Below are positions 19,277-41,139 of a stretch of DNA of 64,000 nt, piece by piece. The position numbers and the translations under genes are program-made. The notes under the pieces were generated by a model. That model saw nothing but the letters and a program-made list of their open reading frames with translations, searched no databases and had not been told where the DNA came from. Origin of the DNA: Myxococcales bacterium LLY-WYZ-16_1 (lineage in GTDB: Bacteria; Myxococcota; Kuafuiibacteriia; Kuafuiibacteriales; Kuafuiibacteriaceae); assembly GCA_031800475.1 (NCBI GenBank), contig DAPKRQ010000263.1:14547-78546 (forward strand). The letters run 5' to 3'. The first letter of the stretch is position 1; every line of letters begins with the position of its first letter.

Positions 19277-21588
19277 AACGAGGACTCGCGGCAGGCGTTG
19301 CCGTCATGGCGGCTGCCGGAGGGTTTGTCGCCCTGCCGGTGGTGGAGCCGCGGGCGCCTTTTTCTCGGATCCTGCTGGATCGGGAGGGGCGTCTTTTGGC
19401 CGCCCGCGTCGCGGCGGACGGCCAGTGGCGCCTTCCACCAGGCCCGGAGCTTCCGGACCGCTACGTGACCGCACTCTTGGCCTTCGAAGATCGCCGGTTT
19501 TTTCACCACCCTGGGGTCGACCCGCTGGCGGTGGCGCGGGCTCTGGTCTCGAACCTGCGAAACGGCCGGATCGTGAGCGGCGCGAGCACCCTGACGATGC
19601 AGCTCGTTCGTCTGAGTCGAAACGCACCACCTAGAACCTTCGCGCAGAAAGTGTGGGAGGCCCTCGTCGCCCTCCGCCTCGAGTCTGTTCGCTCGAAAGA
19701 AGAGATCCTTCGTAGCTACGCCTCCCACGCTCCCTTCGGGGGCAATGTGGTCGGTCTCGAAGCCGCTGCGTGGAGGTACTTTGGGCGGCGGAGCCAGGGG
19801 CTGACCTGGGGGGAAGCGGCGCTCTTGGCGGTGCTGCCCAACAGCCCGGCCTTGATTCACCCGGGGCGCCACCGTGCCGACCTGCGGGTCAAGCGGGACC
19901 GGCTGCTGCTCCGCCTGCACGAGCGGGGCGAGCTGTCGGACGTGGAGCTGTCGGCCGCTCGGGCTGAACGGCTTCCGGACCGGCCGCGCGCCATGCCCCA
20001 GTGGGCGGTGCATGGCCTGGCCTGGACGAGTTCGGACGGAGCGAAACCGCCCGCGCATCGAACCACCATCGATCGGGATCTGCAGCGCCGAGCGGAGCGG
20101 GTCGTGCAGGAGCGGTTGCGCCGACTTCGGGGCGATGGCGTTCACAACGCGGGCGCCCTGGTGGTCCGGATAGATCGGGGCGAGGTGCTCGCCTACGTGG
20201 GGAATGCTGCGCCCCTCGACGCGGCGGAGCACGCCCCGTTCGTGGACGTGGTCCGAGCGCCCCGGAGCACCGGCAGCATCCTGAAACCGTTTCTGTACGC
20301 CCATGCGCTGGACGTGGGCGAGCTGACTCCCGCGTTCCGGCTGACCGATGTCCCGGTGCGGCTCGGCACGTTTTCGCCCGAAAACTTCGACGGCCACCAT
20401 CGGGGCCTGGTTCGGGCCGACGTGGCCCTGGCCCGGTCCCTGAACGTCCCGGCGGTGCTGCTGCTCCGCCAGGTGGGGGCAGGGCGATTTTTGGACTTTT
20501 TGCGGCGGGCGGGGCTTTCGACTCTGGACCGCTCGGCAGGGCACTACGGATTGTCGCTGGTGCTCGGGGGCGCCGAGGCGAGCCTGTGGGAGTTGACGGG
20601 CCTGTACTCGGCCTTGGCTTGGCGAGCCGCCGGGCACAGGGCTCCGTGGCAGGGTCTTCGGGTCGTCGCCGGGGCTGCCACTCCCTTCGCACCGCAGGTC
20701 TCGGCCGGCGGCGCCTACTTGACGGCCGCAGCCTTGCTGCACGTGAAGCGCCCGGGGATCCGCAAGCGGTGGCGCCGCCATTCGGGCGCGTCCGCGATTT
20801 CGTGGAAGACCGGAACGAGTTTCGGCTTTCGGGACGCTTGGGCCATCGGATTCACCCGAGATCACGCGGTGGGTGTCTGGGTCGGAAACGCCGACGGCGA
20901 GGGTCGCCCGAACCTGACCGGTCTTCGGGCTGCGGCGCCGATCCTGTTTTCGCTCTTCGAGCTGCTGCCCGAAAGCCGTCCCCTCGCTCCACCGAGCCTT
21001 GGCCTCACCCGCGTTCAGGTTTGCGCGCACAGCGGCCGTCGACCCGGTCCTCACTGTACAGAGCGCGCTTGGACTCGGATCCCCGCCGGAAGTCCTTTCG
21101 AACGAACCTGCCCCTACTGCCGCACGATCACCTGCGACGCCGGGTGTGGCCGCCGCGTGCATGCGGACTGCCACCCTTTGGGGGACATTCACACCGAGCG
21201 CAGGTTCGTGCTGCCGCCGAGCATCGAACGACACCACCGAGCCCACGACCCGGCCTACCGCCGGCTTCCCCCGTTGGCCGTGGGCTGCGAAGCAGCTCGG
21301 GTTTCAGGCTCGCCCTTCGACATTCTCTTTCCGCCGGCGGGGGGAAACTTCTTCTTGCCGCGGGAGCTGGATGGCCGATTGGGGCGCTTGGTGCTCGAGG
21401 CGGAGCACACCGTCCCCGACACCGAGATCCACTGGCACTTGGACGGCCGCTATCTCGCCACGACCCGCCACGTCCACCAGGTAGAGGTGACACCCAGCCC
21501 CGGCCCGCACATGTTGGTGGTCGTGGACCGAGACGGCCACCGGCTACAGCGGCGCTTTCGCGTGCGCCGGACCAGACAGGTCCCTTGA
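19273..21588 (+). CDS. pbpC: Penicillin-binding protein 1C (transglycosylase/transpeptidase)
   Basis: Glycosyltransferase-51 motifs (FEDRRFFHHPGVD, SGASTLTMQL) followed by a transpeptidase region. The GTG start overlaps the A2M stop (GTGA). Alternative starts lie at 19240 and 19303. Confidence 0.85.
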   Translation: MKRGLAAGVAVMAAAGGFVALPVVEPRAPFSRILLDREGRLLAARVAADGQWRLPPGPELPDRYVTALLAFEDRRFFHHPGVDPLAVARALVSNLRNGRIVSGASTLTMQLVRLSRNAPPRTFAQKVWEALVALRLESVRSKEEILRSYASHAPFGGNVVGLEAAAWRYFGRRSQGLTWGEAALLAVLPNSPALIHPGRHRADLRVKRDRLLLRLHERGELSDVELSAARAERLPDRPRAMPQWAVHGLAWTSSDGAKPPAHRTTIDRDLQRRAERVVQERLRRLRGDGVHNAGALVVRIDRGEVLAYVGNAAPLDAAEHAPFVDVVRAPRSTGSILKPFLYAHALDVGELTPAFRLTDVPVRLGTFSPENFDGHHRGLVRADVALARSLNVPAVLLLRQVGAGRFLDFLRRAGLSTLDRSAGHYGLSLVLGGAEASLWELTGLYSALAWRAAGHRAPWQGLRVVAGAATPFAPQVSAGGAYLTAAALLHVKRPGIRKRWRRHSGASAISWKTGTSFGFRDAWAIGFTRDHAVGVWVGNADGEGRPNLTGLRAAAPILFSLFELLPESRPLAPPSLGLTRVQVCAHSGRRPGPHCTERAWTRIPAGSPFERTCPYCRTITCDAGCGRRVHADCHPLGDIHTERRFVLPPSIERHHRAHDPAYRRLPPLAVGCEAARVSGSPFDILFPPAGGNFFLPRELDGRLGRLVLEAEHTVPDTEIHWHLDGRYLATTRHVHQVEVTPSPGPHMLVVVDRDGHRLQRRFRVRRTRQVP

Positions 21589-27393: not shown

Positions 27394-28899
27394 CTACGCC
27401 GAGTACGTCCGTGACGGCGGCTGCACGAAGGCGCGAAGGTCGGCACAGCGAAACCTCGGGGGTCTCGCCGCTTCTTCTGTGGCCATCCGTCGATGAAACC
27501 GCGCCGCAGCCCGGCGCACCTGCTCCGCCGCGTGTTCGCGAAAGGGCTCTCCCCGCATCAAAAACGGCCAGTCGCTGGCCTGCAGATCCAAAACGGCCTC
27601 CACCCGGGTCGAAGCCGCGGGATCGTCGGGATTCGCATGTTTGGCCCACCGCAGAAGCCGGCGGCTGCATGTTTCGACCAACCCCTGGACCCACGCATTT
27701 TCAGCGCCGATCCAGGTCTGAAAAAACCCGCCCCGTCCCCAGCTGCTCGGCTCCGGCACGCGCACCTCCACGGGCGCCCCGGAGCGAACGACACCAGCGG
27801 GCCCACGGACCGCGAACCCAGCGGCCAGTCCGGCCCGGACCACCCGGTCGAGCCATCGGGGTCCTTCGTACCACCAGTGCCCGAAGAGCTCGGCGTCGAA
27901 CGGCGCGCTCGAAACGGGGACGCGACCGGTGCGCGCTCGAAAGGCCTCGGCGTCGGCGGCAGCCCCTTCGACGAAGGACCGGACGTCCCGGTCCACCTGC
28001 CGGTGGGCGTCAGCGGCCACGTAGGGTCGTTTCGGTCCACCGGTGTGGTCGGTGACCCGCCAGACCTTCAGGCCCAAGGGCCTGCGGTCGGGGGGCAAAC
28101 CGCAGTCGACTCGGAGCCGTTCGCCCACCCCATCCGACCCGTCGGAGTGAAAGTCTCGGTAGGCGGGACGGGTGGGGAAACCGAAATCGGAACTCCACAC
28201 CCGAAGGGCCGCTTTCGGATCTCGCGGAAAAGCCACCGGCCCGCTCGGACACTGCATCGGCGCCCCCGTGCCGAAAACGGCCTCGGAGGCGGCGTGGGCC
28301 TCCACGAAAAAGACCGGCACCGCTTCCGCTGCCAGGATGGGTTCGAGCTCCGGCGACCATGCGCACTCTGGCAACCACAGGCCGGCGGGGCGGTGCCCCA
28401 TGCGCGCCCGGAACTCCGCGAGGCCGATGCGGATCTGGGCCGCCGCCAGGCGGAGATCCATCGAAGCGAGCAGCGGCAAAATCCCGTGGGAGGCGGCGGT
28501 GGTCTGAAGTTCGAGCACGCCCGCCTGGGAAAGGCGCCGGAAGACCTGGATCAGGTCACCGTCCCATCGCTCGAATCGACGGAGACGGGCTTTCCAGTCC
28601 TGGGCCAAATCGGTGTGCCCGAGGCGTTCGGCCAGCCGGACCGAGCCCTCTTGGCGTCGCACGAAGGCCCGCTGCACGGCGGGATCTTGCAGCATCGACA
28701 GCAAGGGCGGGGACACCGACCACGCCACGGAAGCGTCGAGGCCGTCCCGGGCCCACCCCTCGAACACGGTGAGGAGCGGTACATAAGCGTCGCGCACCGC
28801 TTCGAACACCCAATCCAGCGGCCACGGTGCCTCCACCTCCGGGTCCCGCACCTCCGGCAGGTGGGCATGCAACCCGAAGACCCAAACGCCTCGCACCAT
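27394..28899 (-). CDS. GH57-family alpha-glucan branching-enzyme-like protein (GH57 domain plus DUF1957-type C-terminus)
   Basis: The N-terminus (VFGLHAHLPEVRDPE ... DWVFEAVRDAYVPLL) matches the VLHTHIPYV...EEWLFEA...ETYIPLL pattern of GH57 branching enzymes. WLPECAW catalytic-region motif present. 501 aa. Confidence 0.8.
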   Translation of the reverse strand: MVRGVWVFGLHAHLPEVRDPEVEAPWPLDWVFEAVRDAYVPLLTVFEGWARDGLDASVAWSVSPPLLSMLQDPAVQRAFVRRQEGSVRLAERLGHTDLAQDWKARLRRFERWDGDLIQVFRRLSQAGVLELQTTAASHGILPLLASMDLRLAAAQIRIGLAEFRARMGHRPAGLWLPECAWSPELEPILAAEAVPVFFVEAHAASEAVFGTGAPMQCPSGPVAFPRDPKAALRVWSSDFGFPTRPAYRDFHSDGSDGVGERLRVDCGLPPDRRPLGLKVWRVTDHTGGPKRPYVAADAHRQVDRDVRSFVEGAAADAEAFRARTGRVPVSSAPFDAELFGHWWYEGPRWLDRVVRAGLAAGFAVRGPAGVVRSGAPVEVRVPEPSSWGRGGFFQTWIGAENAWVQGLVETCSRRLLRWAKHANPDDPAASTRVEAVLDLQASDWPFLMRGEPFREHAAEQVRRAAARFHRRMATEEAARPPRFRCADLRAFVQPPSRTYSA

Positions 28900-30785
28900 C
28901 AGCCGTCGTCGTGGGGGCCGAACTCGTGGGCGGGAATCAGAGCGCTCGAGGGACGCTCGGTTCGACCCGACCGGCGAGGATCCGGCGCGGGTCCGGGCCC
29001 CGGTCCTCGGTGGAGCGCCTGGGGCCCCTGCCGCACCGGCGCCGACCAGGCGTCGAGCCGGGCCCGGTGCGCCACCCCCGAACGGTCTTCCTCGGCAGCG
29101 TCCGGCGGCTCGAAAGCTCCGGGTCCCTCGACCGGCCCCCCGGCGAACTGGGATGGCCAGATCGGCCCGGGGACCCGGCCCGCCGCCCCCGCGTCAGGCC
29201 CCCTCGACAGGGGTTGCCTGTCGGGAAAGACGGGTGAGGGGCCGGCGGCCGGAACGGCTGCGCCCCCGGCGGGCTCGGACCCACCGCTCGTTTCGAGCGA
29301 ACCCGAGACCGGGGTCCGTTCGGCGGGCTCCGAGCCCGGCCTGGCCCTCACCCCCTGCTCGGCCGGGCCGGCCGCTGGGTGGACGAGCCCCGCCCTTCGC
29401 CCATCCAAACTCCGGAACGAAGTCGGTCGTTCCAGGGCGCGGCCCGGAAGGCCCCGCGCCGACGTCGGAAGCCCCGAAACCTCCCAGGCGCGACCCGGAA
29501 GGCCCCGCGCCGAGGTGGGCACGCGCCCCACGCTGCCGGGGCCCCAGGCCGACAGGTCGCCCTGCGGGAGAATCGGTCCGGGACCCGCCGAGGTGCCGGC
29601 GGCTCCGGGGGCCTCGAGTCTGGCCCCGACCGCGCCGGATGGCGTCCCGCCCAGGTGCTTGGACCCGTGGGCAGTAAAGGGCGCATCTGGCCGAGGACGC
29701 CGCAGATCTGGGGCCGGGCCGCGCCACCCCGAATCGGTCGAGCTGGCGCTGTCGGGAGCGTGGGCACCGCAGAGGGAGCTCGCCTCGAGCCAAGACGCCG
29801 CCTGGGTGGGGGGTTCGAAACGGGGCCCGTCCGCCTTCGATGGGTCCGCCGGACCGGGAGCCTCCACGATTCCAGACCGGGCCAACTCGCGCTCCCCTTC
29901 GTCCGCGACCACCACCAACTGAGCGTAGAAGCGCCCCGGACCGGGCCACCGGAAGAAGTACTGACCCTCCGACGGCGCCACCGCATCGTCGATGGCCGGC
30001 ATCGAATCGCACAGGGACCAGACCCGAAGCCGAGCGATGGCCCAGCGCATGCCGGCGGCAGCCGCCCCCACGGCGTGAAGCGGGATGTTCCAGGAAACGT
30101 AGGCCCAGGTCCGATCCCGCGGCAGCAAGAGCAGGCCGTCGGCCCCGGCCTGCGGTCCTTCGAGGGGCAGCAGGGGCTCGGAGTGGGGCGCCGCCGGTTC
30201 GGAGGGGTCCGGTGCAGATCGGGCAGGCTCGTCGGCCCTCGGCGCCAGGGTGGGGGACGGCGGAGCGGCGGTCGTCGATTGTGTTGCCCTGCCCGGCTTC
30301 GAAGAACCGCCGCGCTTCACGGCCTCGGCCTCGGGCGGTTCGGCGTCGGCTGCCGCCCCTGCGTGGGACGGAGCGGAGGAAGGCGCCGAACGGCGCCCCC
30401 CATCGGCCGGCGGGGCCGCCTCAGCCTCGGCGGCTTGTTCCTGCGCACCGGTCCCAGGCGCCGGATCGGCTGCGGGCTCGGTTTCCCGCATCGTTCTTTG
30501 GTTCGTCTGAATGGACGCAGCGAGCTGAGCAGCGCGTTTCAACAGATCGCTCGGCCGAGTCCGGATCGGCCGGCGACTGAGCTGGCTCACCAACTCGTCC
30601 ATGACGCGAATCCCCATGTCCCCGAGCCGAGACCGAGCCCGGCGAGCCCGGTCGACCGTAGCCGAAAGATTCTTGCCCAGGGCCCGAAGGGTCCGCAGCG
30701 CCTGGTCTTCCTGGGGTGCGGTCACGCCGCGGACGTAACAGGCCGCGATGAAATTCGGAACGCGATCCTCTCCGATCGACAGCAT
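28899..30785 (-). CDS. Pro/Ala/Gly-rich low-complexity protein with one conserved central block (LLLLPRDRTWAYVSWNIP); possibly the DUF4912-type partner often found beside GH57 genes
   Basis: The stop overlaps the GH57 start (TGATG). Internal nucleotide repeats encode TSARGLPGRA x2. The start is uncertain (ATG at 30785, or the longer ORF to 30965). The domain assignment is from memory only. Confidence 0.45.
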   Translation of the reverse strand: MLSIGEDRVPNFIAACYVRGVTAPQEDQALRTLRALGKNLSATVDRARRARSRLGDMGIRVMDELVSQLSRRPIRTRPSDLLKRAAQLAASIQTNQRTMRETEPAADPAPGTGAQEQAAEAEAAPPADGGRRSAPSSAPSHAGAAADAEPPEAEAVKRGGSSKPGRATQSTTAAPPSPTLAPRADEPARSAPDPSEPAAPHSEPLLPLEGPQAGADGLLLLPRDRTWAYVSWNIPLHAVGAAAAGMRWAIARLRVWSLCDSMPAIDDAVAPSEGQYFFRWPGPGRFYAQLVVVADEGERELARSGIVEAPGPADPSKADGPRFEPPTQAASWLEASSLCGAHAPDSASSTDSGWRGPAPDLRRPRPDAPFTAHGSKHLGGTPSGAVGARLEAPGAAGTSAGPGPILPQGDLSAWGPGSVGRVPTSARGLPGRAWEVSGLPTSARGLPGRALERPTSFRSLDGRRAGLVHPAAGPAEQGVRARPGSEPAERTPVSGSLETSGGSEPAGGAAVPAAGPSPVFPDRQPLSRGPDAGAAGRVPGPIWPSQFAGGPVEGPGAFEPPDAAEEDRSGVAHRARLDAWSAPVRQGPQALHRGPGPGPAPDPRRSGRTERPSSALIPAHEFGPHDDG

Positions 30786-30831
30786 GCTTCGCCGACCGAC
30801 CGCACCCTCTGAGGCGCTCGATGCGCGCTCG

Positions 30832-31554
30832 ATGTTGTGTCTCGCCCGGCGGTGGGAAAGGCTCGCGGAGATGGGCGCAAACCCTTTTTCGGTCGCGCTG
30901 ATCCTGTTGGGCCTGCTGGGGCTCTCGGTCGTCCTGCTGCTGCGCCGACCGGCGGGCCTGTTCACCAGCCGCCGGGCCCGTCTGCCCCGTCACCTGGATC
31001 TGGAACCGTTGGAAGGAAGTGTGCCGTTCGACGCCCGGACCCCGATGGAATATCTGTCGGAGCGCCTCGGCCACCTGGGCTTCGAATCTGCCGGTCCCCC
31101 GGTCCGGGTCCGGGCCTTCGACCGGACCGGCCATCGGCTCTTGGTCGTGCCTTTCGTCCATCGAGACGAGCGGGCGTACTTCCTGATGGGCATCGAATCA
31201 GGAGTATCCCCGAGATCCGAACTCATGTTGCACATCATCACGCCCCTGGAGGGCCAGCGCCGGGTGGAAACCACCACCTTGCCCATGTTGCAGGAAATGC
31301 GGTCGCCCGAAGCCGTCGAAGCCCGGGTGGTTCTTGACGCAGACTCGGTGGAGGAGATCTGGAGTCGCCACCGGCGGGCCCTGGTGGAGCACGAACGCCG
31401 AGAGCGGGCAGCCGTCGGCGCCGCGCAGTGGCCGCAGGTGGCGGCAGAGGCGTACGAAGCGTGGCTGCAGGCCGCGGTCCGGGCCCAGCGGCTGATCCTG
31501 GAGCCGAGCCGCGATCGATATCGGGTGCGACCGCGCCCGAAGAGCGTCGTCTGA
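30832..31554 (+). CDS. Hypothetical membrane protein
   Basis: One strong TM helix (FSVALILLGLLGLSVVLLL). No recognised domain. Divergent from the GH57 operon and directly upstream of the ElbD-like gene. Confidence 0.4.
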   Translation: MLCLARRWERLAEMGANPFSVALILLGLLGLSVVLLLRRPAGLFTSRRARLPRHLDLEPLEGSVPFDARTPMEYLSERLGHLGFESAGPPVRVRAFDRTGHRLLVVPFVHRDERAYFLMGIESGVSPRSELMLHIITPLEGQRRVETTTLPMLQEMRSPEAVEARVVLDADSVEEIWSRHRRALVEHERRERAAVGAAQWPQVAAEAYEAWLQAAVRAQRLILEPSRDRYRVRPRPKSVV

Positions 31555-31635: not shown

Positions 31636-34600
31636 TTGTCCATGGAATCGAACGGTTCATTTTCGCCTCTTCAGTCCCTGACGGGTCGGAGCGTCCTGCT
31701 CCTCGGCACCACCGGATTCTTGGGGAAGGTGGTGCTGGCCATGCTCCTCGAACGGTTTTCGGTCCGGCGGCTGCACTGCATCGTCCGGTCTACCCGAAGC
31801 CAGAGCGCAGCAGACCGATTCCGGGCCGAGGTGCTCGGCTCGGACATGATGAAGCCGCTGCGCGCCCGCTTCGCGGACAGCTTCGACGCATGGGTGGAGG
31901 AACAGGTCGAGGTCCACGACGGCGGCCTGCGCGAAAACCTCGGGTTGGCACCAGAGGTGGTGGAGCGGCTTCGGGGCGAGCTGGACCTGGTGATCAACTC
32001 GGCGGGCCTGGTGAACTTCAACCCAGCCCTGGATCAGGCCCTCGAGAGCAACACCCTGGGCGCCGACGTGGTGGCCCGGTTCACACGGGCCTGCGACCGC
32101 GCAAAGCTCGTCCACATCAGCACCTGCTTCGTCGCGGGAAACCGAAGCGGCCGGATCCGAGAAGACGCCAACGTCGTCGGATGGTTTCCGCGGCAAGACG
32201 AAATGCCCGGGGCGACCCTCGATTGGCAGCGCGAGGTCGGCGACCTGCAGCGACTCATCCAGCAGGTCCGCGCGCGCACCGACGACGCGGCGCTCGAGGC
32301 CCACTTTCGTCAGGAGGCGCTGGACCGGCTGAAGCGTGAAAGCCGGGAAGCCTCGGAACGAACCGTCCGGGCCGCCTTGACCAACCAGCGCCGTCGTTGG
32401 GTCACCGACGAGTTGATAAGACTCGGTCGGGAGCGGGCAGAGCATTGGGGCTGGCCGAACATATATACCTACTCCAAGGCCCTCGGCGAACAGGCCATCG
32501 CCTCGAACGAAGATCTCGATTGGGCCATCGTTCGGCCGGCCATCGTCGAAAGCGCGCTGAAGTATCCCTTTTCGGGGTGGAACGAGGGCATGAACACCAC
32601 CGCGCCCTTGGCCCTCATCGGCAAGCGGGGCCAGTTGGTCTATCCGGGGTCCAACGACTTGATCCTCGACGTCGTCCCCGTTGACTTCGTCGCCTCTGCC
32701 ACCATCGCCGCGGGGGCGGCGCTGCTCGACGGCGAGGGCAACCGGGTCTACCAAGTTGCGGCGGGCGACGTGAACCCGTGCAGCATGGCACGCACGGTCC
32801 ACCTCCTCGGTATCTATCGAACCCGGCAGCTCAAAGAACGGGAAGATCAAGGGGAGCTTTCCTCTTGGAAAGCTTCGGTGGCCCGCCTGGCCCGCCCCGT
32901 CCCGCGCAGCAAAGCCACCTACCAGACCTTCGGCGCCCCGGGGCTGCGGCGACTGGTCTCCGGAATCAAATCGCGCCTGGACGAACTGGAGCCCGAACGC
33001 CTCGGTTCTCTTGGCGAGTTCGTGCATCGGGCCCAAAAGGCCGCCGCCGACGTGGACGGGGAGCTGGCGAAGGTGGTCGACGCCTTCGAGCTCTTCATGC
33101 CGTTCATCTGGGAGCACCGATACGTCTTCCGCTCCGACAACACTCGCCGGCTGTTTCGCGACATGGCACAGGCAGACCGGGGTTTGCTTCCCTTCGACAC
33201 CGAGGGCATCGATTGGCGTCACTATTGGCTGGACGTCCATCTTCCGGGATTGGAAACCTGGGTATTTCCGAAACTCGAAACGCAGGGTCCAAAGCGGATC
33301 GCGATCCATCGAGACTATCGAGACCTCGCCGAGCTGTTCGATTCCCGCACGCGGGACAATGCGCGGCGAACGGCCTATCGGATCCTTCGAAAAGACGACG
33401 TTGCCGACGGCTTCACCTACAAGGACCTTCGGCGCGCAGCCACAGCCGTGCAAGCGTTTTTGCAACACCAGGGCATCGGGCGCAAAGATCGCATCGCCAT
33501 CGCGTCGGAAGGGCGCCCCGAGTGGGGGATGTGCTTTTTCGGGATTCTGTTGTCTGGAGGCACCGCAGTCCCGCTGGACGTCGAGCTTTCCGATGGCGAG
33601 CTATCGAACATCGTTCGAAGCAGCGGGTGCAAAGGGGTGATCGCCAGCGACGAACAGCGAACGAAGCTGTCGTCGGTCGGGGTTCCGGTTTGGTCCTTTT
33701 CCGACGTATTCGAGACCGCCCACACCCGAACCGAGACGCAACTCGCAACCATGCGCCGTAGGCCCGAGGACGTGGCGTCGATCATCTTCACATCCGGGAC
33801 CACCGGTCGCCCGAAGGGTGTGATGCTGACGGACCGGAACTTCACCGCGTTGACCGCTCGGCTGTCGGCGCTTTTCGAGCTACAGCGCTCGGACGCTCTG
33901 TTGTCGGTTTTGCCTCCTCACCACACCTTCGAGTTTTCGGCCGGTCTATTGATGCCATTGGCCGCTGGGGCCAGCGTGACCTATCTGGAAGAGCGCTCCC
34001 CCGAGCTGATTCAGCGGGCCTTCCGCGAGATTCCCGTTACTGGGCTCATCGGGGTGCCAGCGGTCTGGGAGAGCCTGCATCGACGAATCGTCGAACGGGT
34101 CGAGCAGCATCCGCTTCTGGTTCGTTGGACCGTAAAGACTCTTTCTCTTTTGAACAGAAAACTTCGAGAGAAAACCGGCATGAACTTCGGCCGACTGGCC
34201 TTTCGAAAGGTGCACGCCGGCTTTGGCGGGCGACTCCGCTACCTGGTGAGTGGGGGCGCCGCGCTGTCCACCCGGGTGTTCAACGATCTCCGTGGCTATG
34301 GATTCTCGATCTACGAAGGCTACGGGCTCACCGAGGCCGCTCCGGTGCTCACGGTCGACTGGCCCCGGCAGCGCTTTCCGGCGGGCAGCGTCGGATGGCC
34401 CTTGCCCGGAATCGACGTACGTCTTCACGCCGCCGACGACAACGGAATCGGAGAGGTGGTCGCTCGGGGTCCGACGATCATGCTCGGGTACCTGGACGAT
34501 CCGGATTCCACCCGAGGAGTTTTGAAGGACGGATGGCTGCATACCGGCGATCTGGGGCGGTTCGACGACGACGGGCGCCTGTATATCGTTGGTCGCAATA

Positions 34601-36009
34601 AAGATGTCATCATCGACGCCAACGGCAAGAATGTCTACCCAGACGAGGTCGAAGAGCTCTACGAGGGCCACCCGCTGATCAAGGAGCTTTCGGTGGCCGG
34701 CATTCCGGACGAGACCGGCCAGCATGAGCGGGTGGCGGCCATGGTTCATCCCGATTTCGAGCGAGGCAAAGACGAGGATGATCTGGACCCGAACGAAGTC
34801 GAAGAGCGGATCCGCGCCCATTTTCGCGAAGTCGGAAGCCGACTCCCGTTCGCGCGGCGGGTCAAGGTTCTGCACTTTGCTCGGTCCGAGCTGCCACGCA
34901 CTTCCGCCCGCAAAATCCGGCGCAGCTGGGTGCGGCAGGAACTCGTTCGACTGGAAGGCGCCGGGCGAAAGGTCGAAGCCGGCAACGGGACCACCAGTCA
35001 AACCGCAGAGCGTGTCCGCCGGTTGGTTGCGAACGTCGCCCAGCGTCCGCTGCGGGACTTGAGTCCGGCCACGTCGCTTTCGAACCAGCTCGGGTTCGAT
35101 TCGCTTCTTCAGATGGAGCTTTTGAATGCCCTGGAGCGGGAGTTTCCAGACCGGGACCTGGCGCCGGAGGAGCTGACTGCCGTCGACACCCTGTCGGAGC
35201 TCGTGCAGTTGATGGAGCGCAGCCCCGACCATCGCTCCCGTCCCGTCACCGACGTCGCCCACGAGGAAGAGGCCCCTCCGGTCAAGATCCCAGGACCGGT
35301 GGCCCGGATGGGCAAGCGCATGCTCGGTCAGGCTCAACATCTGGCCTACGACCGGTGGCTGCACTGCGAAGTTCAGGGCCGTGGCAACATTCCCGCGAAT
35401 ACCAACTTCATCGTGGCGTCGAACCACGCGAGCCATCTGGACATGGGCCTCGTAAAGTATGCCCTCGGGCCTTTCGGACGGGGGCTGCGGTCCCTGGCCG
35501 CTCGAGACTACTTCTTTGATGATCCGGTCCGCCGGACCTACTTCGAAAACTTCACCAACCTGCTTCCGATGGAGCGGCACGGCTCTCTGCGCAGGTCGCT
35601 CGAGTTGGCCGTACGTAGCTTGCGGCAGGGCGAGTCGCTGTTGATCTTTCCCGAGGGCACCCGGGCCCGGGACGGGGTGATGACTGCCTTCAAGCCGGCA
35701 GTGGGCTACCTGTGCCTCCACGCCAAGGTCGACGTCTTGCCGATCTACTTGCGAGGCACCCACCAGGCGCTGCCGGTCGGGGAATGGCGTCTGGACCCGG
35801 CGCTCAAGATCGAGGCTCACATCGGTCCTCCGATTCGGGTCGACGCCATGATGGAAGCCACTCGAAAGATGTCCCGCTCTCGCGCCTACCGCCATGTGGC
35901 CCAGCAGGTGGAGGCTGCGGTCCGACGGCTGGGACGCGTGGAAGACGTGGCGACATCGGACGACGACCATCCATCGTGGGTGCTCGAGCGACGGGAGCGG
36001 TCCTCGTGA
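31636..36009 (+). CDS. Four-domain lipid-biosynthesis enzyme: fatty acyl-CoA reductase (NAD_binding_4) - long-chain acyl-CoA ligase (AMP-binding) - ACP - lysophospholipid acyltransferase (AGPAT); ElbD-like (myxobacterial ether-lipid biosynthesis)
   Basis: FAR domain: GTTGFLGK and YTYSK motifs. AMP-binding domain: TSGTTGRPKG, YGLTEAAP, GWLHTGDLGRFDDDGRLYIVGRNKD. ACP: LGFDSL. AGPAT: NHASHLD (HX4D) and FPEGTR. 1457 aa. Confidence 0.85.
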   Translation: MSMESNGSFSPLQSLTGRSVLLLGTTGFLGKVVLAMLLERFSVRRLHCIVRSTRSQSAADRFRAEVLGSDMMKPLRARFADSFDAWVEEQVEVHDGGLRENLGLAPEVVERLRGELDLVINSAGLVNFNPALDQALESNTLGADVVARFTRACDRAKLVHISTCFVAGNRSGRIREDANVVGWFPRQDEMPGATLDWQREVGDLQRLIQQVRARTDDAALEAHFRQEALDRLKRESREASERTVRAALTNQRRRWVTDELIRLGRERAEHWGWPNIYTYSKALGEQAIASNEDLDWAIVRPAIVESALKYPFSGWNEGMNTTAPLALIGKRGQLVYPGSNDLILDVVPVDFVASATIAAGAALLDGEGNRVYQVAAGDVNPCSMARTVHLLGIYRTRQLKEREDQGELSSWKASVARLARPVPRSKATYQTFGAPGLRRLVSGIKSRLDELEPERLGSLGEFVHRAQKAAADVDGELAKVVDAFELFMPFIWEHRYVFRSDNTRRLFRDMAQADRGLLPFDTEGIDWRHYWLDVHLPGLETWVFPKLETQGPKRIAIHRDYRDLAELFDSRTRDNARRTAYRILRKDDVADGFTYKDLRRAATAVQAFLQHQGIGRKDRIAIASEGRPEWGMCFFGILLSGGTAVPLDVELSDGELSNIVRSSGCKGVIASDEQRTKLSSVGVPVWSFSDVFETAHTRTETQLATMRRRPEDVASIIFTSGTTGRPKGVMLTDRNFTALTARLSALFELQRSDALLSVLPPHHTFEFSAGLLMPLAAGASVTYLEERSPELIQRAFREIPVTGLIGVPAVWESLHRRIVERVEQHPLLVRWTVKTLSLLNRKLREKTGMNFGRLAFRKVHAGFGGRLRYLVSGGAALSTRVFNDLRGYGFSIYEGYGLTEAAPVLTVDWPRQRFPAGSVGWPLPGIDVRLHAADDNGIGEVVARGPTIMLGYLDDPDSTRGVLKDGWLHTGDLGRFDDDGRLYIVGRNKDVIIDANGKNVYPDEVEELYEGHPLIKELSVAGIPDETGQHERVAAMVHPDFERGKDEDDLDPNEVEERIRAHFREVGSRLPFARRVKVLHFARSELPRTSARKIRRSWVRQELVRLEGAGRKVEAGNGTTSQTAERVRRLVANVAQRPLRDLSPATSLSNQLGFDSLLQMELLNALEREFPDRDLAPEELTAVDTLSELVQLMERSPDHRSRPVTDVAHEEEAPPVKIPGPVARMGKRMLGQAQHLAYDRWLHCEVQGRGNIPANTNFIVASNHASHLDMGLVKYALGPFGRGLRSLAARDYFFDDPVRRTYFENFTNLLPMERHGSLRRSLELAVRSLRQGESLLIFPEGTRARDGVMTAFKPAVGYLCLHAKVDVLPIYLRGTHQALPVGEWRLDPALKIEAHIGPPIRVDAMMEATRKMSRSRAYRHVAQQVEAAVRRLGRVEDVATSDDDHPSWVLERRERSS

Positions 36010-37001
36010 AGGTGGTGGTGACCGGGGCCAATGGCTTTTTGGGTCAGGCCGTGGTCGACGCCGTGCTGGACGCCGGCCACCAGGTACGCGCTTGGTTTCG
36101 ACGGCCGCCAGCGCAGGCACGAACCGACGTGGACGTTCGGGTGGTGGACCTGGAGCAGGACCCGGACCTGGACCGCGAACTCGAGGGGGTCGACGCCATC
36201 ATCCACCTGGCAGGCCTCGTCTCTCGACGTCCGGAAGACGCGACCCGCATGTACCGGCTGCACTTGGCCTGCACGCGCAAGCTCCTGGAAGCTTCGGAAC
36301 GCCGAGGGGTGGCTCGATGGGTCTTGGCTTCCTCGTCGGGCACGGTGGCAGTGTCCTCCCAAAAACGGGTGATGGACGAAGACCACGAGCCCGACCTGGA
36401 ACTGGTGGGCCGCTGGCCATACTACATGTCCAAGCTTCACCAAGAGCAAGAGGTCTTGCGTTGGTACGAACGAGGTGCGGTCGAGCCCGTGATCTTGAAC
36501 CCGTCCCTCTTGCTGGGACCCGGCGACGCCCGGCTGTCGTCCACGGCCGACGTCCTCGATGTGCTGACCGGAAGATACCCGGCAGCTGTAGACGGCACGG
36601 TGGCCTTCGTCGACGTGCGAGACTGCGCTCCCATTTTCGCGAAAGCCCTGAAGAGAGGCCGTCCGGGAGAGAAGTATCTCTTGAATGGCGCCAATATGTC
36701 GGTTCGGCGTTTCGCCGAGCGGGTGGCGCTGACCGGAGGCGTCGCCGGCCCCCGGATGGTGGTCAAGGGAGCCTGGGCGTACCGGGGGGCGAAGCTCTTG
36801 GAGGGCCTCCGCACCGCAGCGGGACTGGATCCCGAGGCCGGGCTCGATCCGGTGGCGGTCGACATGGCCCGACACCACTGGGCTTGCGATTCCCGGCGGG
36901 CCATGTCCGAGCTCGGGTTCTCCCCGCGGGACCCGGCCCGTACCATCGCGGACACCGTGTCGGACCTGGAATCCCGAAACCTCTTCCGTCGTTCGGCCTG
37001 A
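36006..37001 (+). CDS. NAD-dependent epimerase/dehydratase-family (extended SDR) protein; ElbE-like
   Basis: VVVTGANGFLGQAVV Rossmann motif. The GTG start overlaps the upstream stop (GTGA). About 330 aa. Confidence 0.75.
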   Translation: MKVVVTGANGFLGQAVVDAVLDAGHQVRAWFRRPPAQARTDVDVRVVDLEQDPDLDRELEGVDAIIHLAGLVSRRPEDATRMYRLHLACTRKLLEASERRGVARWVLASSSGTVAVSSQKRVMDEDHEPDLELVGRWPYYMSKLHQEQEVLRWYERGAVEPVILNPSLLLGPGDARLSSTADVLDVLTGRYPAAVDGTVAFVDVRDCAPIFAKALKRGRPGEKYLLNGANMSVRRFAERVALTGGVAGPRMVVKGAWAYRGAKLLEGLRTAAGLDPEAGLDPVAVDMARHHWACDSRRAMSELGFSPRDPARTIADTVSDLESRNLFRRSA

Positions 37002-37019: not shown

Positions 37020-38357
37020 ATGGGCAACGCAGACGCCAACGAGCCCCCCGCGGATCCGCGTCCCGCAGCGCCGGCTCGCCACCGGACCAACCGGATCTGG
37101 GACCGATTCCTGGATGGCCTGGCCCAGGTCGAGGTCGGTCGTCCGGCGGACCAGGTCCTCCGAAAGCTCGAGGCCCGAGCCAAAGACCTGGGTCGGTCCG
37201 AGAGGCGGGCTTTGCGGGAAGGCTTTTTCGGCTTTCTACGAACGCGGCGCTCCGTCGTCGACCAGCTCGAGAGGGCGATGCAAGCCGAGCGACGTCCGCT
37301 CGACACCCTATCCGTCCCGGCTCGGCAGGAGCTGGAGCTGCTCGCGTTTCTCGCCGGAACCGGGGCCGAGCTTCCCCCGTCTCAGATCGCCAAGCGTCAT
37401 GCCAAAGTGCTTGACCGGATCCGAGCTGGTCGACTTCCCAAGCCCAAAGGCTCCCAGCTCCACCGGGCGGCCATTGAAGCGAACGTCCCCGATTGGATCT
37501 TCGAACGCTGGGAGGCAGACCGCGGATGGGAACGAGCTCGTGCCCTGGGCGGCATTCTGCGGGAGCGAGCTCCCGTCACGTTGTTCGTTCGAGGCGACCG
37601 AGATGAGGCCGTGGCCGCGCTCGAAAACGCCGCTCCCACGCGGTGGTCACCCGCAGGCCTCACCCTTCCACCGGGGACCCCGCTGTCGACGTTGGGCGAT
37701 TGGGTGGAACGGAGCCACCTGCAGGACGAAGGCAGCCAACTGCTGGCGTGGGCAGCCGCGCACCCCACTGCCGGCCCCCCCCCGCGCCGAATCTTGGACG
37801 CCTGCACCGGAGCGGGCGGTAAAATCTTGGCGCTCGCCCACTGGTCCGATGCGGAGCTGCACGGGGTCGAACCCGAGGCGTCGCGCTTGGGCGAAGCGAA
37901 GCGCCGGGTCAAGCAGGCTGAATTGCAACGAGCCGTCGCGTGGCACCCGACCACCCTGGAGCAGCATGCCCAGGACCACCCTGGCGCCTACGACGTGGTC
38001 CTGGTGGATGCGCCCTGCACGGGAACCGGAACCCTGCGAAGGCACCCCGAGCTCGCCGCCCGCCTGACGAAAGGAGATCTCGAGCAGGCCACGGCGACCC
38101 AAAAGCGCCTCTTGGCGGCAGCCCTCGGGGCCCTGGCACCCCATGGCACCCTGCTCTACGCCACCTGCTCGGTCCTCCATCGAGAGAACGAAGCGGTGGC
38201 CGCCTACCTGCTCGCCCACGCTCCACAGCTGCGGCCGGTACCCGTCTTTTCCCACGATGCGCCCGAACTCCGCGGCTGCGCCGTGCGGATCGGTCCAGGA
38301 CCCGACCCGAGAGGACCCGACGGCTTCTTCGTGGCGGCGTTTCGACGAGGCGGCTGA
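37020..38357 (+). CDS. RsmB/RsmF (NOL1/NOP2/Sun) family RNA cytosine-C5 methyltransferase
   Basis: SAM motif DACTGAGGKILAL and catalytic DAPCTGTGTLRRHPE / LLYATCS motifs. Confidence 0.75.
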   Translation: MGNADANEPPADPRPAAPARHRTNRIWDRFLDGLAQVEVGRPADQVLRKLEARAKDLGRSERRALREGFFGFLRTRRSVVDQLERAMQAERRPLDTLSVPARQELELLAFLAGTGAELPPSQIAKRHAKVLDRIRAGRLPKPKGSQLHRAAIEANVPDWIFERWEADRGWERARALGGILRERAPVTLFVRGDRDEAVAALENAAPTRWSPAGLTLPPGTPLSTLGDWVERSHLQDEGSQLLAWAAAHPTAGPPPRRILDACTGAGGKILALAHWSDAELHGVEPEASRLGEAKRRVKQAELQRAVAWHPTTLEQHAQDHPGAYDVVLVDAPCTGTGTLRRHPELAARLTKGDLEQATATQKRLLAAALGALAPHGTLLYATCSVLHRENEAVAAYLLAHAPQLRPVPVFSHDAPELRGCAVRIGPGPDPRGPDGFFVAAFRRGG

Positions 38358-38460
38358 TCTTTGGCCGATTTCGGGGTCCTCGCACCCATGACGAACACGA
38401 AACCCTGGACCGGGCGAGGCTCCGACTGTGCGCGCCGACCGGGCCTGCTACACTCGAGGC

Positions 38461-38733
38461 ATGTTCGGCCCCGGTATCGCCATGGCCGCAGGCATGGCCG
38501 AGCCTCCACAACCGGATCCGGTCCTCCGGATCATCTTCGCGTTGATGGCCCTGGCGCTCGTGGGTTTGGCGATCCGGATGAGTCTGCGCATCCTGGCGCT
38601 CTTTCAGAGCCCGCCGCCCGTCTACGGCATGCGCTCGAGCTGCCCCCGCTGCCAGCAGGAGCTGCATCTGTGGACCGGCGCGACCCGCTGCCCCAAATGC
38701 GATCTTCGGATCGTGGTGCGGTTTGAAGAGTGA
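38461..38733 (+). CDS. Small membrane protein with C-terminal zinc ribbon (CPRC...CPKC)
   Basis: One TM helix (ILRIIFALMALALVGLAI), then CxxC-N17-CxxC. ORF only. Confidence 0.35.
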   Translation: MFGPGIAMAAGMAEPPQPDPVLRIIFALMALALVGLAIRMSLRILALFQSPPPVYGMRSSCPRCQQELHLWTGATRCPKCDLRIVVRFEE

Positions 38734-38965
38734 ACCGAAGCGCTCGAAGCGACCGAAGCGGTAGAAGGCCCCCGGTAAAATCTGTGGAACAGGGGTGCCG
38801 TCTGGATGGCCCCTGGACTGCACCTCCGTATGGGCAGTCGGGTCCGATCTGCCTCCATGGGGGCCCTCGACCCGGAATCCATTGCGGAGTCCCCAGCTTG
38901 CGGGAATCCGTGCTCGGGCCCGCACCCGATCGCCAAGTCCGGTTCTTTTCGTTCAGCCTCGCCAC

Positions 38966-39775
38966 ATGGTCGCGTTGGGGGGCTGGGCCGTCATGCTCTT
39001 GGCAGGCGCGAGCGTGCCGGGTTCGTCCGAGGCGCCGCCGCCCCCAGCCGACGCCGGTCCGCCCTCGGAGGAATGCGTGGGTTGCCCGCCGCGGTCTGGG
39101 TTTTTCGTTCGCTTCACTGGAAACGGCCTGACCGGTTGGTACGGAGACCCGCTCTACGCCGACGCCGAACGACGGGCCATCTCAGAGTTGGCCTTCGGAG
39201 CGGGCATGGCGTTCGGCCTGCAGATCGACCCCACCTGGAGCATCGCGGTGTTCGGCGACGTGTTGTTCGGAGGCGTGGATACCACGTCGCTCGAAGGCTT
39301 CGCCCAGTTGGCGGACGTGGACAGCCTTCAGGCCAGCGTCGGGCTCAGCGGCCGCATCACCCTGGGGCAAGACCCGGGCTGGCAGCCGGTGCTCGGGGTG
39401 GAGGGGGCGCTGCTGCGACAGTGGGTGTGGTGGCAAAGCGCCGAGGGACGGCCCGTGGCCGTGCTCAGCCCGTACACGGGCCGTCGGGTTGGCACGGTCT
39501 ACCGACCAGAGCTCGAGCTTCGGAGCCAACACGACGGGTGGGCCGTGGGCCCGATCTTGGGTCTGGCCAAGCGCCTGGGCCCGGATGGATATGGACCGAA
39601 GTTCGTGGTCGAAGCGGCCGGCCAGTACCAGCGGTGGTCGCCCGGGAGCACCGACGTGAGCGCCGCGCCCAGCCGCGAAGTGCTGGAGGCCACGGTCCGC
39701 TCCATCGAATCGATTCAGCAAGACGCCGAAGTGTGGAGCGCCACCATCCGGGTGGGCCTGCAGTTCGGGCCGTGA
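38966..39775 (+). CDS. Secreted hypothetical protein (signal peptide; possible beta-rich OM or periplasmic protein)
   Basis: N-terminal signal MVALGGWAVMLLAGASVPGSS. No known motif. Confidence 0.45.
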   Translation: MVALGGWAVMLLAGASVPGSSEAPPPPADAGPPSEECVGCPPRSGFFVRFTGNGLTGWYGDPLYADAERRAISELAFGAGMAFGLQIDPTWSIAVFGDVLFGGVDTTSLEGFAQLADVDSLQASVGLSGRITLGQDPGWQPVLGVEGALLRQWVWWQSAEGRPVAVLSPYTGRRVGTVYRPELELRSQHDGWAVGPILGLAKRLGPDGYGPKFVVEAAGQYQRWSPGSTDVSAAPSREVLEATVRSIESIQQDAEVWSATIRVGLQFGP

Positions 39776-39793
39776 CACGAGGTCGTTCCAATC

Positions 39794-40564
39794 ATGAGAT
39801 GGCTCTTTGCTCTATCCCTGCTCGTAGCCAGCAACCTCGGTTGCTTCGAAGACCGGGGCCGTCCTGCGGGTCCCAGTTCCCAGTGGATCTGCACACCCGC
39901 CGACGACGCCGATCCTCCCGGGACTCCGGGGGACCCGGACACGCCGCCGTCGGTCCCGGATGATCCGAGCTGTCCCGCGCCGAGCTGTCCGTCCGGCCTG
40001 GACGCCATGTACGTGTCGGGAGACCCGATGGCATGCGCGGCCATCGAGTTCGACTGCCCCGAGGGTGAAGTGCGGTTCGACGCACCGTGCGGATGCGGCT
40101 GCCGCCCCGAGGCGCCATCCGGCGGAGACTCGGGCTCCACCGGCCTATGTCCGGAGCCGGGAGAGAACGGAGCCTTCTATTTGGGCGAAGGCGGCAAGGT
40201 CTGCGAGACGATCGACTTCACCTGTCCCGACGGCCAAGAGCGATTCGACGGCCCGTGCGGATGCGGTTGCTGGAACGGCTGCCCGGATCCGGAAGACCCC
40301 CGGGTCCACTATCTCTCGGAAGACCCGGAAATCTGCGAGCTCGTCGAGTTCACGTGCCCGGCCGACTGCGTGGCGTTCGACGACGGCTGTGGGTGCGGTT
40401 GCATCGAGCCCGAGGCCGGAGCCGCATGCCCCGATCCCGACGATCCGACCGTGTTGTACGTGAGCACGTCGACCACCGTGTGCAGCCGGGTGAACCTGAA
40501 TTGCCCGGGCGACAGCTTCGACGACGCCTGCGGCTGCGGCTGCCTGGACGACCCGGGCAACTGA
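39794..40564 (+). CDS. Cysteine-rich lipoprotein with four tandem ~45-aa repeats, each ending FDxxCGCGC (about 31 Cys in 256 aa)
   Basis: Lipobox SNLGC. Four copies of CP(D/E)P...Y(V/L)S...C..(I/V)(E/D)F(D/T)CP......FD..CGCGC, read directly from the translation. Confidence 0.6.
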   Translation: MRWLFALSLLVASNLGCFEDRGRPAGPSSQWICTPADDADPPGTPGDPDTPPSVPDDPSCPAPSCPSGLDAMYVSGDPMACAAIEFDCPEGEVRFDAPCGCGCRPEAPSGGDSGSTGLCPEPGENGAFYLGEGGKVCETIDFTCPDGQERFDGPCGCGCWNGCPDPEDPRVHYLSEDPEICELVEFTCPADCVAFDDGCGCGCIEPEAGAACPDPDDPTVLYVSTSTTVCSRVNLNCPGDSFDDACGCGCLDDPGN

Positions 40565-40614
40565 CGCGGCGACCCATCGGCTCGGCCGGGTTCCCCGGGT
40601 CGGTGCGTTGCGGT

Positions 40615-41139
40615 CTACGGTCTCGGGCTGGCGCCCCCGCACACCGCGCCGGTGTCCTGGTCGGCCACGGAGTCGTTGTAGGCGTTCAGCGCGTCTTGGA
40701 ACCGCGCTTCGCTCCGGCGGGTGGCGCCGGCCGACACGAGTGCCGGGATCAGGGAGGTTCCGGCCAACACCAAACCCGCGATGCCTTCGCCTTGAATCTC
40801 GTCCTCCAGGGGCCCCGGCTCGTCCTGCAGGTCGACCGCCACCAAAATCACGGCCGCCGTCGACATGGCGAGGGACGTCATCGAAAACCAGAATGCCTGC
40901 TGGCGGGCCCCCTGCGCCCGCTGGGCATAGCCGCGGGCCTCGGTGTCTGCCGGAAAGATGCCGTCCAGACCCGAGAACATGCTCTCGTCGAGGGCGTACC
41001 GCTCACCGCACCGGCTGACGGTGCGCCGCAATCCCTCATGCTCCACTCGAGCGAATCGAGGCTGTTGCGGAACGTACTCGGTCGTGGCGCAACCGACCAG
41101 GGCGGTCAGCGCCGCGACCGAAGCCAACCTGCGTGTCAT
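40615..41139 (-). CDS. Hypothetical lipoprotein with one internal TM segment
   Basis: Signal plus lipobox LVGC. Hydrophobic helix AVILVAVDL. Confidence 0.45.
   Translation of the reverse strand: MTRRLASVAALTALVGCATTEYVPQQPRFARVEHEGLRRTVSRCGERYALDESMFSGLDGIFPADTEARGYAQRAQGARQQAFWFSMTSLAMSTAAVILVAVDLQDEPGPLEDEIQGEGIAGLVLAGTSLIPALVSAGATRRSEARFQDALNAYNDSVADQDTGAVCGGASPRP

Follow-up and report, generated by a model that had tools for sequence, protein, structure and literature searches.

The question raised by this locus, which lies on the chromosome of an uncultured Myxococcota lineage, is whether a large multidomain enzyme and the reductase gene that follows it belong to the Elb system for ether-lipid synthesis, or whether they serve a different branch of fatty acyl metabolism. 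Genetic work has established that bacteria can make ether lipids through ElbD without AGPS, and recognition of the two genes as elbD and elbE predicts alkyl-glycerol lipids in this lineage. Analysis of the 64-kb window (the whole stretch of DNA considered here) indicates that they are most probably an orthologous elbD-elbE pair of the AGPS-independent route to 1-O-alkyl (ether) glycerolipids, a reading that draws on domain order, catalytic residues, end-to-end similarity and gene coupling. The discovery is incremental, since ElbD homologues are widespread in Myxococcota MAGs and already in the literature, and elbDE unlinked to elbBC has likewise been published.

Gene structure and domain organization

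The large open reading frame on the forward strand ends at 36009 and can begin either at a TTG (31636) or at an ATG (31642). A sequence-only reading of this DNA had proposed a 1457-aa megaenzyme with the order FAR-ligase-ACP-AGPAT; the reading frame is real and the domain order is that recovered with Pfam, and the length is more likely 1455 aa because the public protein P0001 (1455 aa), which is 100% identical to the window ElbD, begins at the ATG (Table 1). A near-identical NCBI protein is HJL42781.1 (P0123), and the public annotation of the window elbD reads only 'AMP-binding protein' or 'long-chain acyl-CoA synthetase'. The succession of Pfam families NAD_binding_4, Sterile, AMP-binding, AMP-binding_C, PP-binding and Acyltransferase corresponds to the published description of ElbD (PMC9131029). 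The match to the Sterile domain, at 35.1 bits, is slightly below the 35.4-bit Pfam cut-off, and precomputed Pfam annotation places this domain in most homologues.

Table 1. Coordinates of genes, domains and motifs at the elbD-elbE locus (nucleotide positions are those of the window)
Feature	Residues (aa)	Position (nt)	Strand	Basis
elbX (provisional name), ~227 aa, candidate clade-specific partner		30871..31554	+	
elbD homologue, 1455 aa (FAR-type reductase + ACS + ACP + PlsC-type acyltransferase)		31642..36009	+	ORF, Pfam, alignment
FAR reductase (NAD_binding_4, PF07993)	22-353	31705..32700	+	Pfam E 8e-45
GTTGFLG (reductase)	22-28	31705-31725	+	
STCFVAG (reductase)		32119-32139	+	
YTYSK (reductase)	275-279	32464-32478	+	
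FAR C-terminal 'Sterile' (PF03015)	476-542	33067..33267	+	E 1.6e-08
Acyl-adenylating domain (AMP-binding + AMP-binding_C)		33364..34914	+	Pfam: PF00501, aa 575-951, E 4e-70; PF13193, aa 1002-1091
TSGTTGRPKG P-loop (adenylating)	717-726	33790-33819	+	
GYGLTE (adenylating)		34318-34335	+	
PRTSARKIRR, holds A10 lysine (adenylating)		34894-34923	+	
Acyl carrier (PP-binding, PF00550)	1123-1190	35008..35211	+	Pfam E 3e-11
LGFDSL with phosphopantetheine-attachment serine (ACP)	1151-1155 (GFDSL)	35089-35106	+	
PlsC/AGPAT-type Acyltransferase (PF01553)	1242-1370	35365..35751	+	Pfam E 4e-20
NHASHLD (acyltransferase)	1261-1267	35422-35442	+	
FPEGTR (acyltransferase)	1336-1341	35647-35664	+	
elbE homologue, 331 aa, extended SDR		36006..37001	+	Pfam, identity to ElbE
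GANGFLG (ElbE)		36024-36044	+	
YYMSK (ElbE)	Y139xxxK143	36420-36434	+	

All six catalytic signatures quoted in the earlier reading were found, and the catalytic positions of the four ElbD domains are intact. Across 193 homologues conservation is 97-100% for the set scored, which comprised GxxGxxG, the S/T motif, YxxxK, the P-loop, the A10 lysine, the ACP serine (99%), HxxxxD and FPEGTR. Comparison with solved structures is consistent with these assignments: the best relative of the reductase domain is a fatty acyl-CoA reductase (7eoz, E 5.5e-42), the closest relatives of the adenylating domain are acyl-CoA ligases, and the only solved relative of the acyltransferase domain is T. maritima PlsC (5kym, E 5e-17). 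The best NCBIfam matches of the acyltransferase domain, Aas-type acyl-ACP--phospholipid acyltransferase and AGP_acyltrn, all lie under their cut-offs.

The second gene was correctly recognized as ElbE-like and as overlapping the first, with its GTG start at 36006 running into the elbD stop codon (TGA, 36007-36009) to form a GTGA overlap. Its product is an Epimerase-family extended SDR (Pfam PF01370, E 8e-30) that is 43% identical to M. dinghuensis ElbE and 41% identical to M. xanthus-type ElbE, compared with only 27% to ElbA, and so is nearer to ElbE than to ElbA; the best NCBIfam matches, HpnA and SdmB, fall below cut-offs. The GxxGxxG motif, the serine and the YxxxK motif are conserved in 100% of 79 homologues. 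The start-stop overlap recurs in M. dinghuensis and at the M. xanthus-type locus, where the elbD/elbE junction is the same TCGTGAAG overlap as in the window, and, among 80 related loci, 74 have an elbE homologue directly 3' of elbD; some of the remaining six end near elbD.

Correspondence to M. xanthus ElbD and to other ether-lipid enzymes

The proposed ElbD-type architecture holds over the full length of the protein. Alignment to M. xanthus DK1622 ElbD (MXAN_1528, ABF88003.1 = P0365, UniProt Q1DC43) gives one HSP of 1459 columns that covers residues 11-1440 of the 1455 in the window ElbD, with 43% identity, 61% positives and 3% gaps. Identity is evenly spread: individual regions, whether catalytic domain or linker, score 27-57% and contain few gap columns. 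The M. xanthus enzyme, at 1470 aa, has the same four-domain order, linkers of matching length and all of the catalytic motifs. Poor alignment to ElbD, or an order and linkers resembling those of a carboxylic acid reductase, would have pointed away from this assignment; the two proteins are instead colinear, the linkers match and the order is not that of such a reductase. The earlier reading had named MXAN_1528 and MXAN_1529 for comparison by alignment, and the second of these must be corrected: in the numbering of PMC13012113 the elb genes run from elbA (MXAN_1531) through elbE (MXAN_1527), so that ElbE is MXAN_1527 and MXAN_1529 is elbC.

Identity to the ElbD of M. dinghuensis, which is encoded within an elbA-B-C-D-E operon, is 44%. 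Within ElbD, uncultured Myxococcota form a clade apart, to which the window protein belongs; this clade shares ~45% identity with Myxococcaceae ElbD and ~44-45% with Acidobacteriota ElbD. The clusters of Acidobacteriota (Pyrinomonadaceae/Blastocatellia, subdivision 4) resemble the window in ElbD architecture and adjacent ElbE, at ~44% identity; unlike the window, these elbB-elbE clusters retain elbB and elbC upstream, and their link to ether lipids is putative. At 43% identity to M. xanthus ElbD, the window enzyme may have shifted in function or substrate.

A second system is the FARAT/AGPS route, represented by the M. xanthus FAR-GNPAT fusion MXAN_1675 with the AGPS MXAN_1676 and by eukaryotic FAR1, GNPAT and AGPS. 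The element common to it and ElbD would be a FAR-type reductase that, together with a glycerolipid acyltransferase, provides the alkyl and acyl moieties of the ether lipid. ElbD differs in carrying adenylating and ACP domains within the same polypeptide and in having no linked AGPS, and its acyltransferase domain matches PlsC/AGPAT-type models and not GNPAT.

Genomic context and the upstream gene elbX

The earlier observation that the window lacks an alkyl-DHAP-synthase gene stands: Pfam scans of its composition-supported ORFs revealed no AGPS-like gene (alkyl-DHAP synthase, FAD-linked oxidase), no CarF and no other lipid genes. By tblastn (E<=1e-5), no elbB or elbC homologue occurs in the 64-kb window, and the search for elbA returned nothing there beyond a weak paralogue match of ElbA to ElbE. 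Nor were elbB and elbC present in the 2-10 kb of upstream sequence that was read at each locus examined in the window's clade. If these genes are needed, they must therefore be located elsewhere in the genome. The window elbDE pair is thus not embedded in an elbA-elbB-elbC-elbD-elbE operon, and such embedding does not define the ElbD family: elbB and elbC accompany elbDE in Myxococcaceae and Acidobacteriota, whereas elbDE unlinked to elbBC is reported from all three myxobacterial suborders (PMC9131029, citing Lorenzen 2014). The description of the locus as minimal or rearranged is right to the extent that the window lacks elbB and elbC, although the arrangement itself had already been reported for myxobacteria (PMC9131029).

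The neighbours of elbDE, as judged by Pfam scans of all composition-supported ORFs, are housekeeping genes, with an RsmB/F-type methyltransferase gene downstream of elbE, and the locus is syntenic in the core chromosome across the lineage. A scan of 30.5-38.6 kb for promoters and terminators found sites no more numerous than in shuffled sequence.

Unlike the M. xanthus elbABCDE operon, the upstream side of the window has no elbA, elbB (HAD) or elbC (Lar_N), and in their place is an orphan membrane-protein gene, elbX, which ends 87 nt before elbD. This gene is conserved and is usually found directly upstream of elbD in the window's clade. Its product is a single-pass membrane protein with one N-terminal hydrophobic helix (probably transmembrane) and an alpha/beta domain; searches assigned it to no Pfam family, and fold comparison gave no convincing match. 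A speculative and rather doubtful extension is that elbX-elbD-elbE forms a self-sufficient three-gene ether-lipid unit in which elbX would replace ElbB and ElbC, either as a membrane tether for the soluble ElbD or in an AGPS-independent ether-bond step. Were this true, heterologous expression of a ~6-kb fragment could serve to define how the ether bond is formed. Being compact, lacking elbB and elbC and having a conserved candidate partner gene, the locus also offers a small candidate construct for pathway reconstitution.

Predicted reactions and alternative products

What is known of ElbD and ElbE from genetics and partial biochemistry is given in PMC9131029, which summarises Lorenzen 2014 and Gallego-Garcia 2019. 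By analogy, the adenylating domain of the window ElbD would activate a long-chain fatty acid and attach it by a thioester bond to the ACP in cis, a reaction documented in vitro for M. xanthus ElbD only (PMC9131029). The N-terminal FAR-type domain, with NAD(P)H, would then convert the thioester into a fatty aldehyde or alcohol as the source of the alkyl chain; in M. xanthus an iso-15:0 aldehyde is elbD-dependent. The PlsC-like domain is predicted to acylate a glycerol-phosphate-type acceptor from an acyl thioester, and the acceptor would most plausibly be the sn-2 hydroxyl of a 1-alkyl-lyso intermediate. Finally ElbE, NAD(P)H-dependent and translationally coupled to ElbD, would reduce the carbonyl group of a lipid intermediate in an additional step, converting either an aldehyde or a 1-alkyl-DHAP-type ketone to an alcohol. 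The need for ElbD in making alkyl and vinyl ether lipids has been demonstrated in M. xanthus and S. aurantiaca only (PMC9131029).

The alternative that survives best, although we regard it as unlikely, is that elbDE makes another fatty-alcohol or fatty-aldehyde derivative, such as free fatty alcohols, wax-like esters or an acylated non-ether lipid, because elbB/elbC or AGPS would be required for the ether bond and are absent. The lack of elbB, elbC and AGPS in the 64 kb, and of elbB/elbC near elbD in the clade, is in keeping with such a product, as are the equal distance of the window clade from Myxococcaceae (45%) and Acidobacteriota (44%) ElbD and the case of Pontiella, which has an ElbD homologue yet in which no ether lipids were detected (PMC11868695). 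However, the effect of elbB disruption in M. xanthus has been put down to polarity, and unlinked elbDE is known from all three suborders (PMC9131029). The M. xanthus enzyme shares the complete four-domain architecture, the linkers and the coupling to ElbE, and the acyltransferase of the window protein is of the PlsC type, which acts on glycerolipids, and not of the wax-synthase type.

Considerably less credible is lipid recycling of the kind carried out by E. coli Aas (2-acyl-GPE acyltransferase / acyl-ACP synthetase), in which free fatty acid would pass by way of ACP to a lysophospholipid and the reductase would be accessory or without a role. Aas, partly like ElbD, links fatty-acid adenylation through ACP to a lysolipid within one polypeptide, and Aas (acyl-[ACP]--phospholipid O-acyltransferase) models are among the NCBIfam matches of both the adenylating and the acyltransferase parts. 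These matches are nonetheless far under the family cut-offs (203 vs 1221 bits), and the window ElbD is therefore not an Aas member; moreover, the domain order of Aas is the opposite, its ACP is a separate protein and not in cis, and it has no FAR or other reductase. Invariance of the FAR catalytic residues throughout the family speaks for an active reductase.

A carboxylic acid reductase or NRPS module is ruled out by domain order and reductase type, and it is scarcely conceivable that the protein is an NRPS-like carboxylic acid reductase or the fatty-acyl starter module of a secondary-metabolite cluster: carboxylic acid reductases do adenylate their substrate, hold it as a carrier-protein thioester and release it by NADPH-dependent reduction, the adenylation domain of the window protein is similar to NRPS A domains (E 1e-30), and the reductase gives weak matches to thioester-reductase and carboxylic acid reductase models (84 and 50 bits, below cut-off, which for the latter is 1300), but those enzymes are ordered A-T-R with a C-terminal reductase of the NRPS-R type and no acyltransferase, whereas the window protein is R-A-T-AT with an N-terminal, FAR-type reductase that carries the FAR C-terminal domain, and it is flanked not by NRPS or PKS genes but by housekeeping neighbours in a syntenic part of the core chromosome.

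Identity of the two-gene module

The window pair is an ElbD/ElbE system, predicted to make ether lipids, and a new representative of this known system in a distinct clade of uncultured Myxococcota. A public protein (P0001, 1455 aa) that is 100% identical to the window ElbD starts at ATG 31642, and HJL42781.1, from a cluster of at least 90% identity, is annotated 'AMP-binding protein [Myxococcales bacterium LLY-WYZ-16_1]'. The Pfam E-values (see table) leave a chance origin of the domain matches of no concern, and all six catalytic motifs quoted in the sequence-only reading are present, their catalytic positions being 97-100% conserved in an alignment of 193 sequences. ORF, Pfam and motifs thus confirm what that reading had described, a four-domain ORF followed by an epimerase-family gene with a GTGA overlap.

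Positions of features in the window (nucleotides, or residues of ElbD where marked aa) and in related loci
Feature	Position	Strand	Remark
NAD_binding_4 ('male sterility' FAR domain)	aa 22-353		Pfam, E 8e-45
Sterile (FAR C-terminal domain)	aa 476-542		Pfam, 35.1 bits vs 35.4-bit cut-off
AMP-binding	aa 575-951		Pfam, E 4e-70
AMP-binding_C	aa 1002-1091		Pfam
PP-binding	aa 1123-1190		Pfam
Acyltransferase	aa 1242-1370		Pfam
elbD-homologue ORF	31636 (TTG) or 31642 (ATG) to TGA 36007-36009	+	
elbE homologue	36006-37001	+	GTG start, GTGA overlap with elbD stop
Orphan-gene ORF	30748 (ATG) to 31554	+	87 nt gap to elbD
RsmB/F-type (NOL1/NOP2/Sun) methyltransferase	37020-38357	+	begins 18 nt past elbE
GH57 region	1055-3460	+	
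Alpha-2-macroglobulin	13760-19276	+	1838 aa
PBP1C-type transglycosylase/transpeptidase	19240-21588	+	overlaps preceding gene
GH57-DUF4912 pair	27394-30965	-	DUF4912 protein 688 aa from ORF's first start codon
GC-rich stretch at this pair	28-30 kb		73% GC
Composition-supported ORFs without Pfam family (within 38428-41139)	38795-39775; 39794-40564; 40615-41139	+; +; -	
elbC, L055 and L089	8193-9956; 4382-5992		Lar_N, E 1.8e-36
elbD, L082	10001-14467		window clade
Desaturase (PF00487) and Acyl_transf_3, L083	6898-9128		

Aligned to the characterised M. xanthus DK1622 ElbD (ABF88003.1, the ElbD query of PMC11868695), the window protein gives one HSP of 1459 columns with 43% identity, 61% positives and 3% gaps. 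Identity, with few gap columns, is 44% in the FAR domain, 40% in FAR-C and linker, 43% and 56% in the N and C parts of the adenylating domain, 42% in the ACP, 29% in the ACP-AT linker and 57% in the acyltransferase; because of this region-by-region identity (29-57%), the likeness extends beyond generic motifs. A carboxylic acid reductase was rejected, as the reductase is FAR-type and N-terminal and the CAR model, with a cut-off of 1300 bits, gives only 50. The best solved relative of the reductase domain is the fatty acyl-CoA reductase 7eoz.

The second gene encodes an extended SDR (PF01370, E 8e-30) with 41% identity to M. xanthus-type ElbE, 43% to M. dinghuensis ElbE and only 27% to ElbA, which bears out its description as ElbE-like. 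Its catalytic GxxGxxG, serine and YxxxK are 100% conserved among 79 homologues; its top NCBIfam matches, HpnA and SdmB, are both under cut-off, and among extended SDRs that act on lipids it falls in the 3beta-HSD/HpnA/SdmB-like group. The elbD/elbE junction, TCGTGAAG, is identical in the M. xanthus-type locus and the window, and with the end-to-end ElbD alignment and the ElbE identity upholds the ElbD/ElbE interpretation.

Clades and locus organization

A scan of GTDB species genomes yielded 589 relatives, one in Myxococcus dinghuensis (L055), where Epimerase, HAD, Lar_N-domain protein, the four-domain enzyme and, overlapping its stop with a GTG start, a second SDR form a five-gene row with the elbA-E layout of PMC9131029 and PMC13012113. 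The 193 full-length ElbD homologues cluster into three about equidistant clades (between-clade identity 44-47%): that of the window (68 sequences, mutual identity 51-99%, named members Myxococcota or 'Deltaproteobacteria' MAGs), a Myxococcaceae-type clade with Myxococcus, Corallococcus and Archangium among its members, and one of Acidobacteriota (Pyrinomonadaceae/Blastocatellia). Published reports place ElbD homologues in about one third of the Myxococcota MAGs from the Black Sea and in several further phyla (PMC11868695; 2026 sponge-symbiont preprint).

Of the 80 loci, 74 have an elbE homologue after elbD; among the other 6 are some that stop near elbD. Directly upstream lie elbB-elbC in most Myxococcaceae-type loci and in nearly all Acidobacteriota loci having sufficient upstream sequence; neither gene occurs at nine Myxococcaceae-type loci (L022, L023, L056, L062, L067, L068, L073, L075, L079), nor in the flanks read (2-10 kb upstream) of the window-clade loci L001-L003 and L081-L085. 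Among the composition-supported ORFs of the window, Pfam found no AGPS-like, HAD/ElbB-like or Lar_N/ElbC-like gene, as the sequence-only reading had held for alkyl-DHAP synthase, and Myxococcus ElbB and ElbC found no tblastn match in the window. The 'minimal or rearranged' locus of that reading also stands, insofar as elbB and elbC are missing from the window; myxobacterial elbDE unlinked to elbBC had been published before. ElbC identity between Myxococcus and most Acidobacteriota loci is 60-63%, above that of ElbD (47%) and ElbE (44-52%).

The window-clade block is syntenic (AbgT ... GH57-DUF4912 / elbD-elbE-rsmB ... FHA, tig-clpP-clpX), a pattern that points to vertical inheritance in the core chromosome. 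Neighbour ORFs, taken where codon-position GC supports them and Pfam-scanned, are those of ordinary chromosome: two GH57 genes, peroxiredoxin, Fur, TonB receptor, fumarase, RF3, alpha-2-macroglobulin with PBP1C, hybrid kinase and AbgT transporter; shortly upstream of the module a POTRA protein, the second GH57 and a DUF4912 protein; farther downstream MDH/LDH, metallophosphoesterase, FHA protein, tig-clpP-clpX, P450 and others.

An orphan gene upstream of elbD

The order at the module is orphan gene, elbD, elbE, RsmB/F methyltransferase. Homologue alignment suggests ATG 30871 as the true start of the orphan gene (provisionally elbX), giving a protein of ~227 aa that has one hydrophobic helix at its N-terminus plus a conserved alpha/beta domain. 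With 34 members tried, no Pfam, NCBIfam or PHROG family matched even at E<=1. Homologues of the orphan protein in a large protein database form just 97 clusters, each of about 220-270 aa; their E-values span 1e-140 to 4e-43, and no weaker match follows. The few named homologues are from Myxococcota or 'Deltaproteobacteria' MAGs, and at least 16 of the 97 match members of the window's ElbD clade in the size of the longest contig.

The gene adjoins elbD upstream in the window and in L003, L081, L083, L084, L085, L087 and L088, down to 47% ElbD identity, while the genes beyond it vary (DUF4912, a PLD-like gene, or Acyl_transf_3 with a fatty-acid desaturase). It occupies the place held by elbB and elbC in other clades, and is the one element that might add to the significance of the locus. 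It is absent at the window-clade loci L001 and L002, lies 3 kb from elbD in L082, where elbE is missing, and in L086 stands beside DUF4912-GH57 with no elbD within 8 kb. Because of this partial linkage it is ranked only as a candidate clade-specific partner of elbD-elbE; lineage synteny would also suffice to explain the adjacency.

Proposed roles and neighboring genes

In M. xanthus, according to PMC9131029, formation of alkyl and vinyl ether lipids and of an iso-15:0 aldehyde requires elbD, elbE contributes to the ether lipids, and CarF makes the vinyl ether at a later stage; in-vitro activity is reported for the adenylating and ACP domains but not for the FAR and acyltransferase domains. ElbD homologues and detectable ether lipids do not always coincide (PMC11868695). 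From conserved architecture and residues, the window ElbD would adenylate a fatty acid and hold it on the in-cis ACP, reduction of the bound chain by the FAR domain would give the aldehyde or alcohol that supplies the alkyl chain, and the PlsC-like domain would acylate a glycerol-phosphate-type acceptor, for which the sn-2 position of a 1-alkyl lyso-intermediate is the most plausible choice. ElbE may carry out one more reduction, NAD(P)H-dependent, at a carbonyl group of a lipid. The only solved relative of the acyltransferase domain is T. maritima PlsC (5kym); its best family matches, Aas-type acyl-ACP acyltransferases, are well under cut-off.

The RsmB/F-type gene probably encodes a co-transcribed rRNA methyltransferase. 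At related loci its start and the stop of elbE overlap, by 4 nt in L081, L085 and L087 and by 1 nt in L088. The GH57-DUF4912 pair (in some loci with metallophosphoesterase) lies upstream of the elb unit and divergent to it in L084 and L086, as does DUF4912 without GH57 in L085 and L087. L082 (ERZ26696514 ctg303842, 6.05 Mb) has no elbE within 10 kb, and MoxR-like AAA and VWA genes take its place downstream of elbD. In L083, whose ElbD (P0070) is the most divergent of the window's clade, the desaturase and Acyl_transf_3 genes just upstream of orphan gene-elbD-elbE may be extra lipid-tailoring genes.
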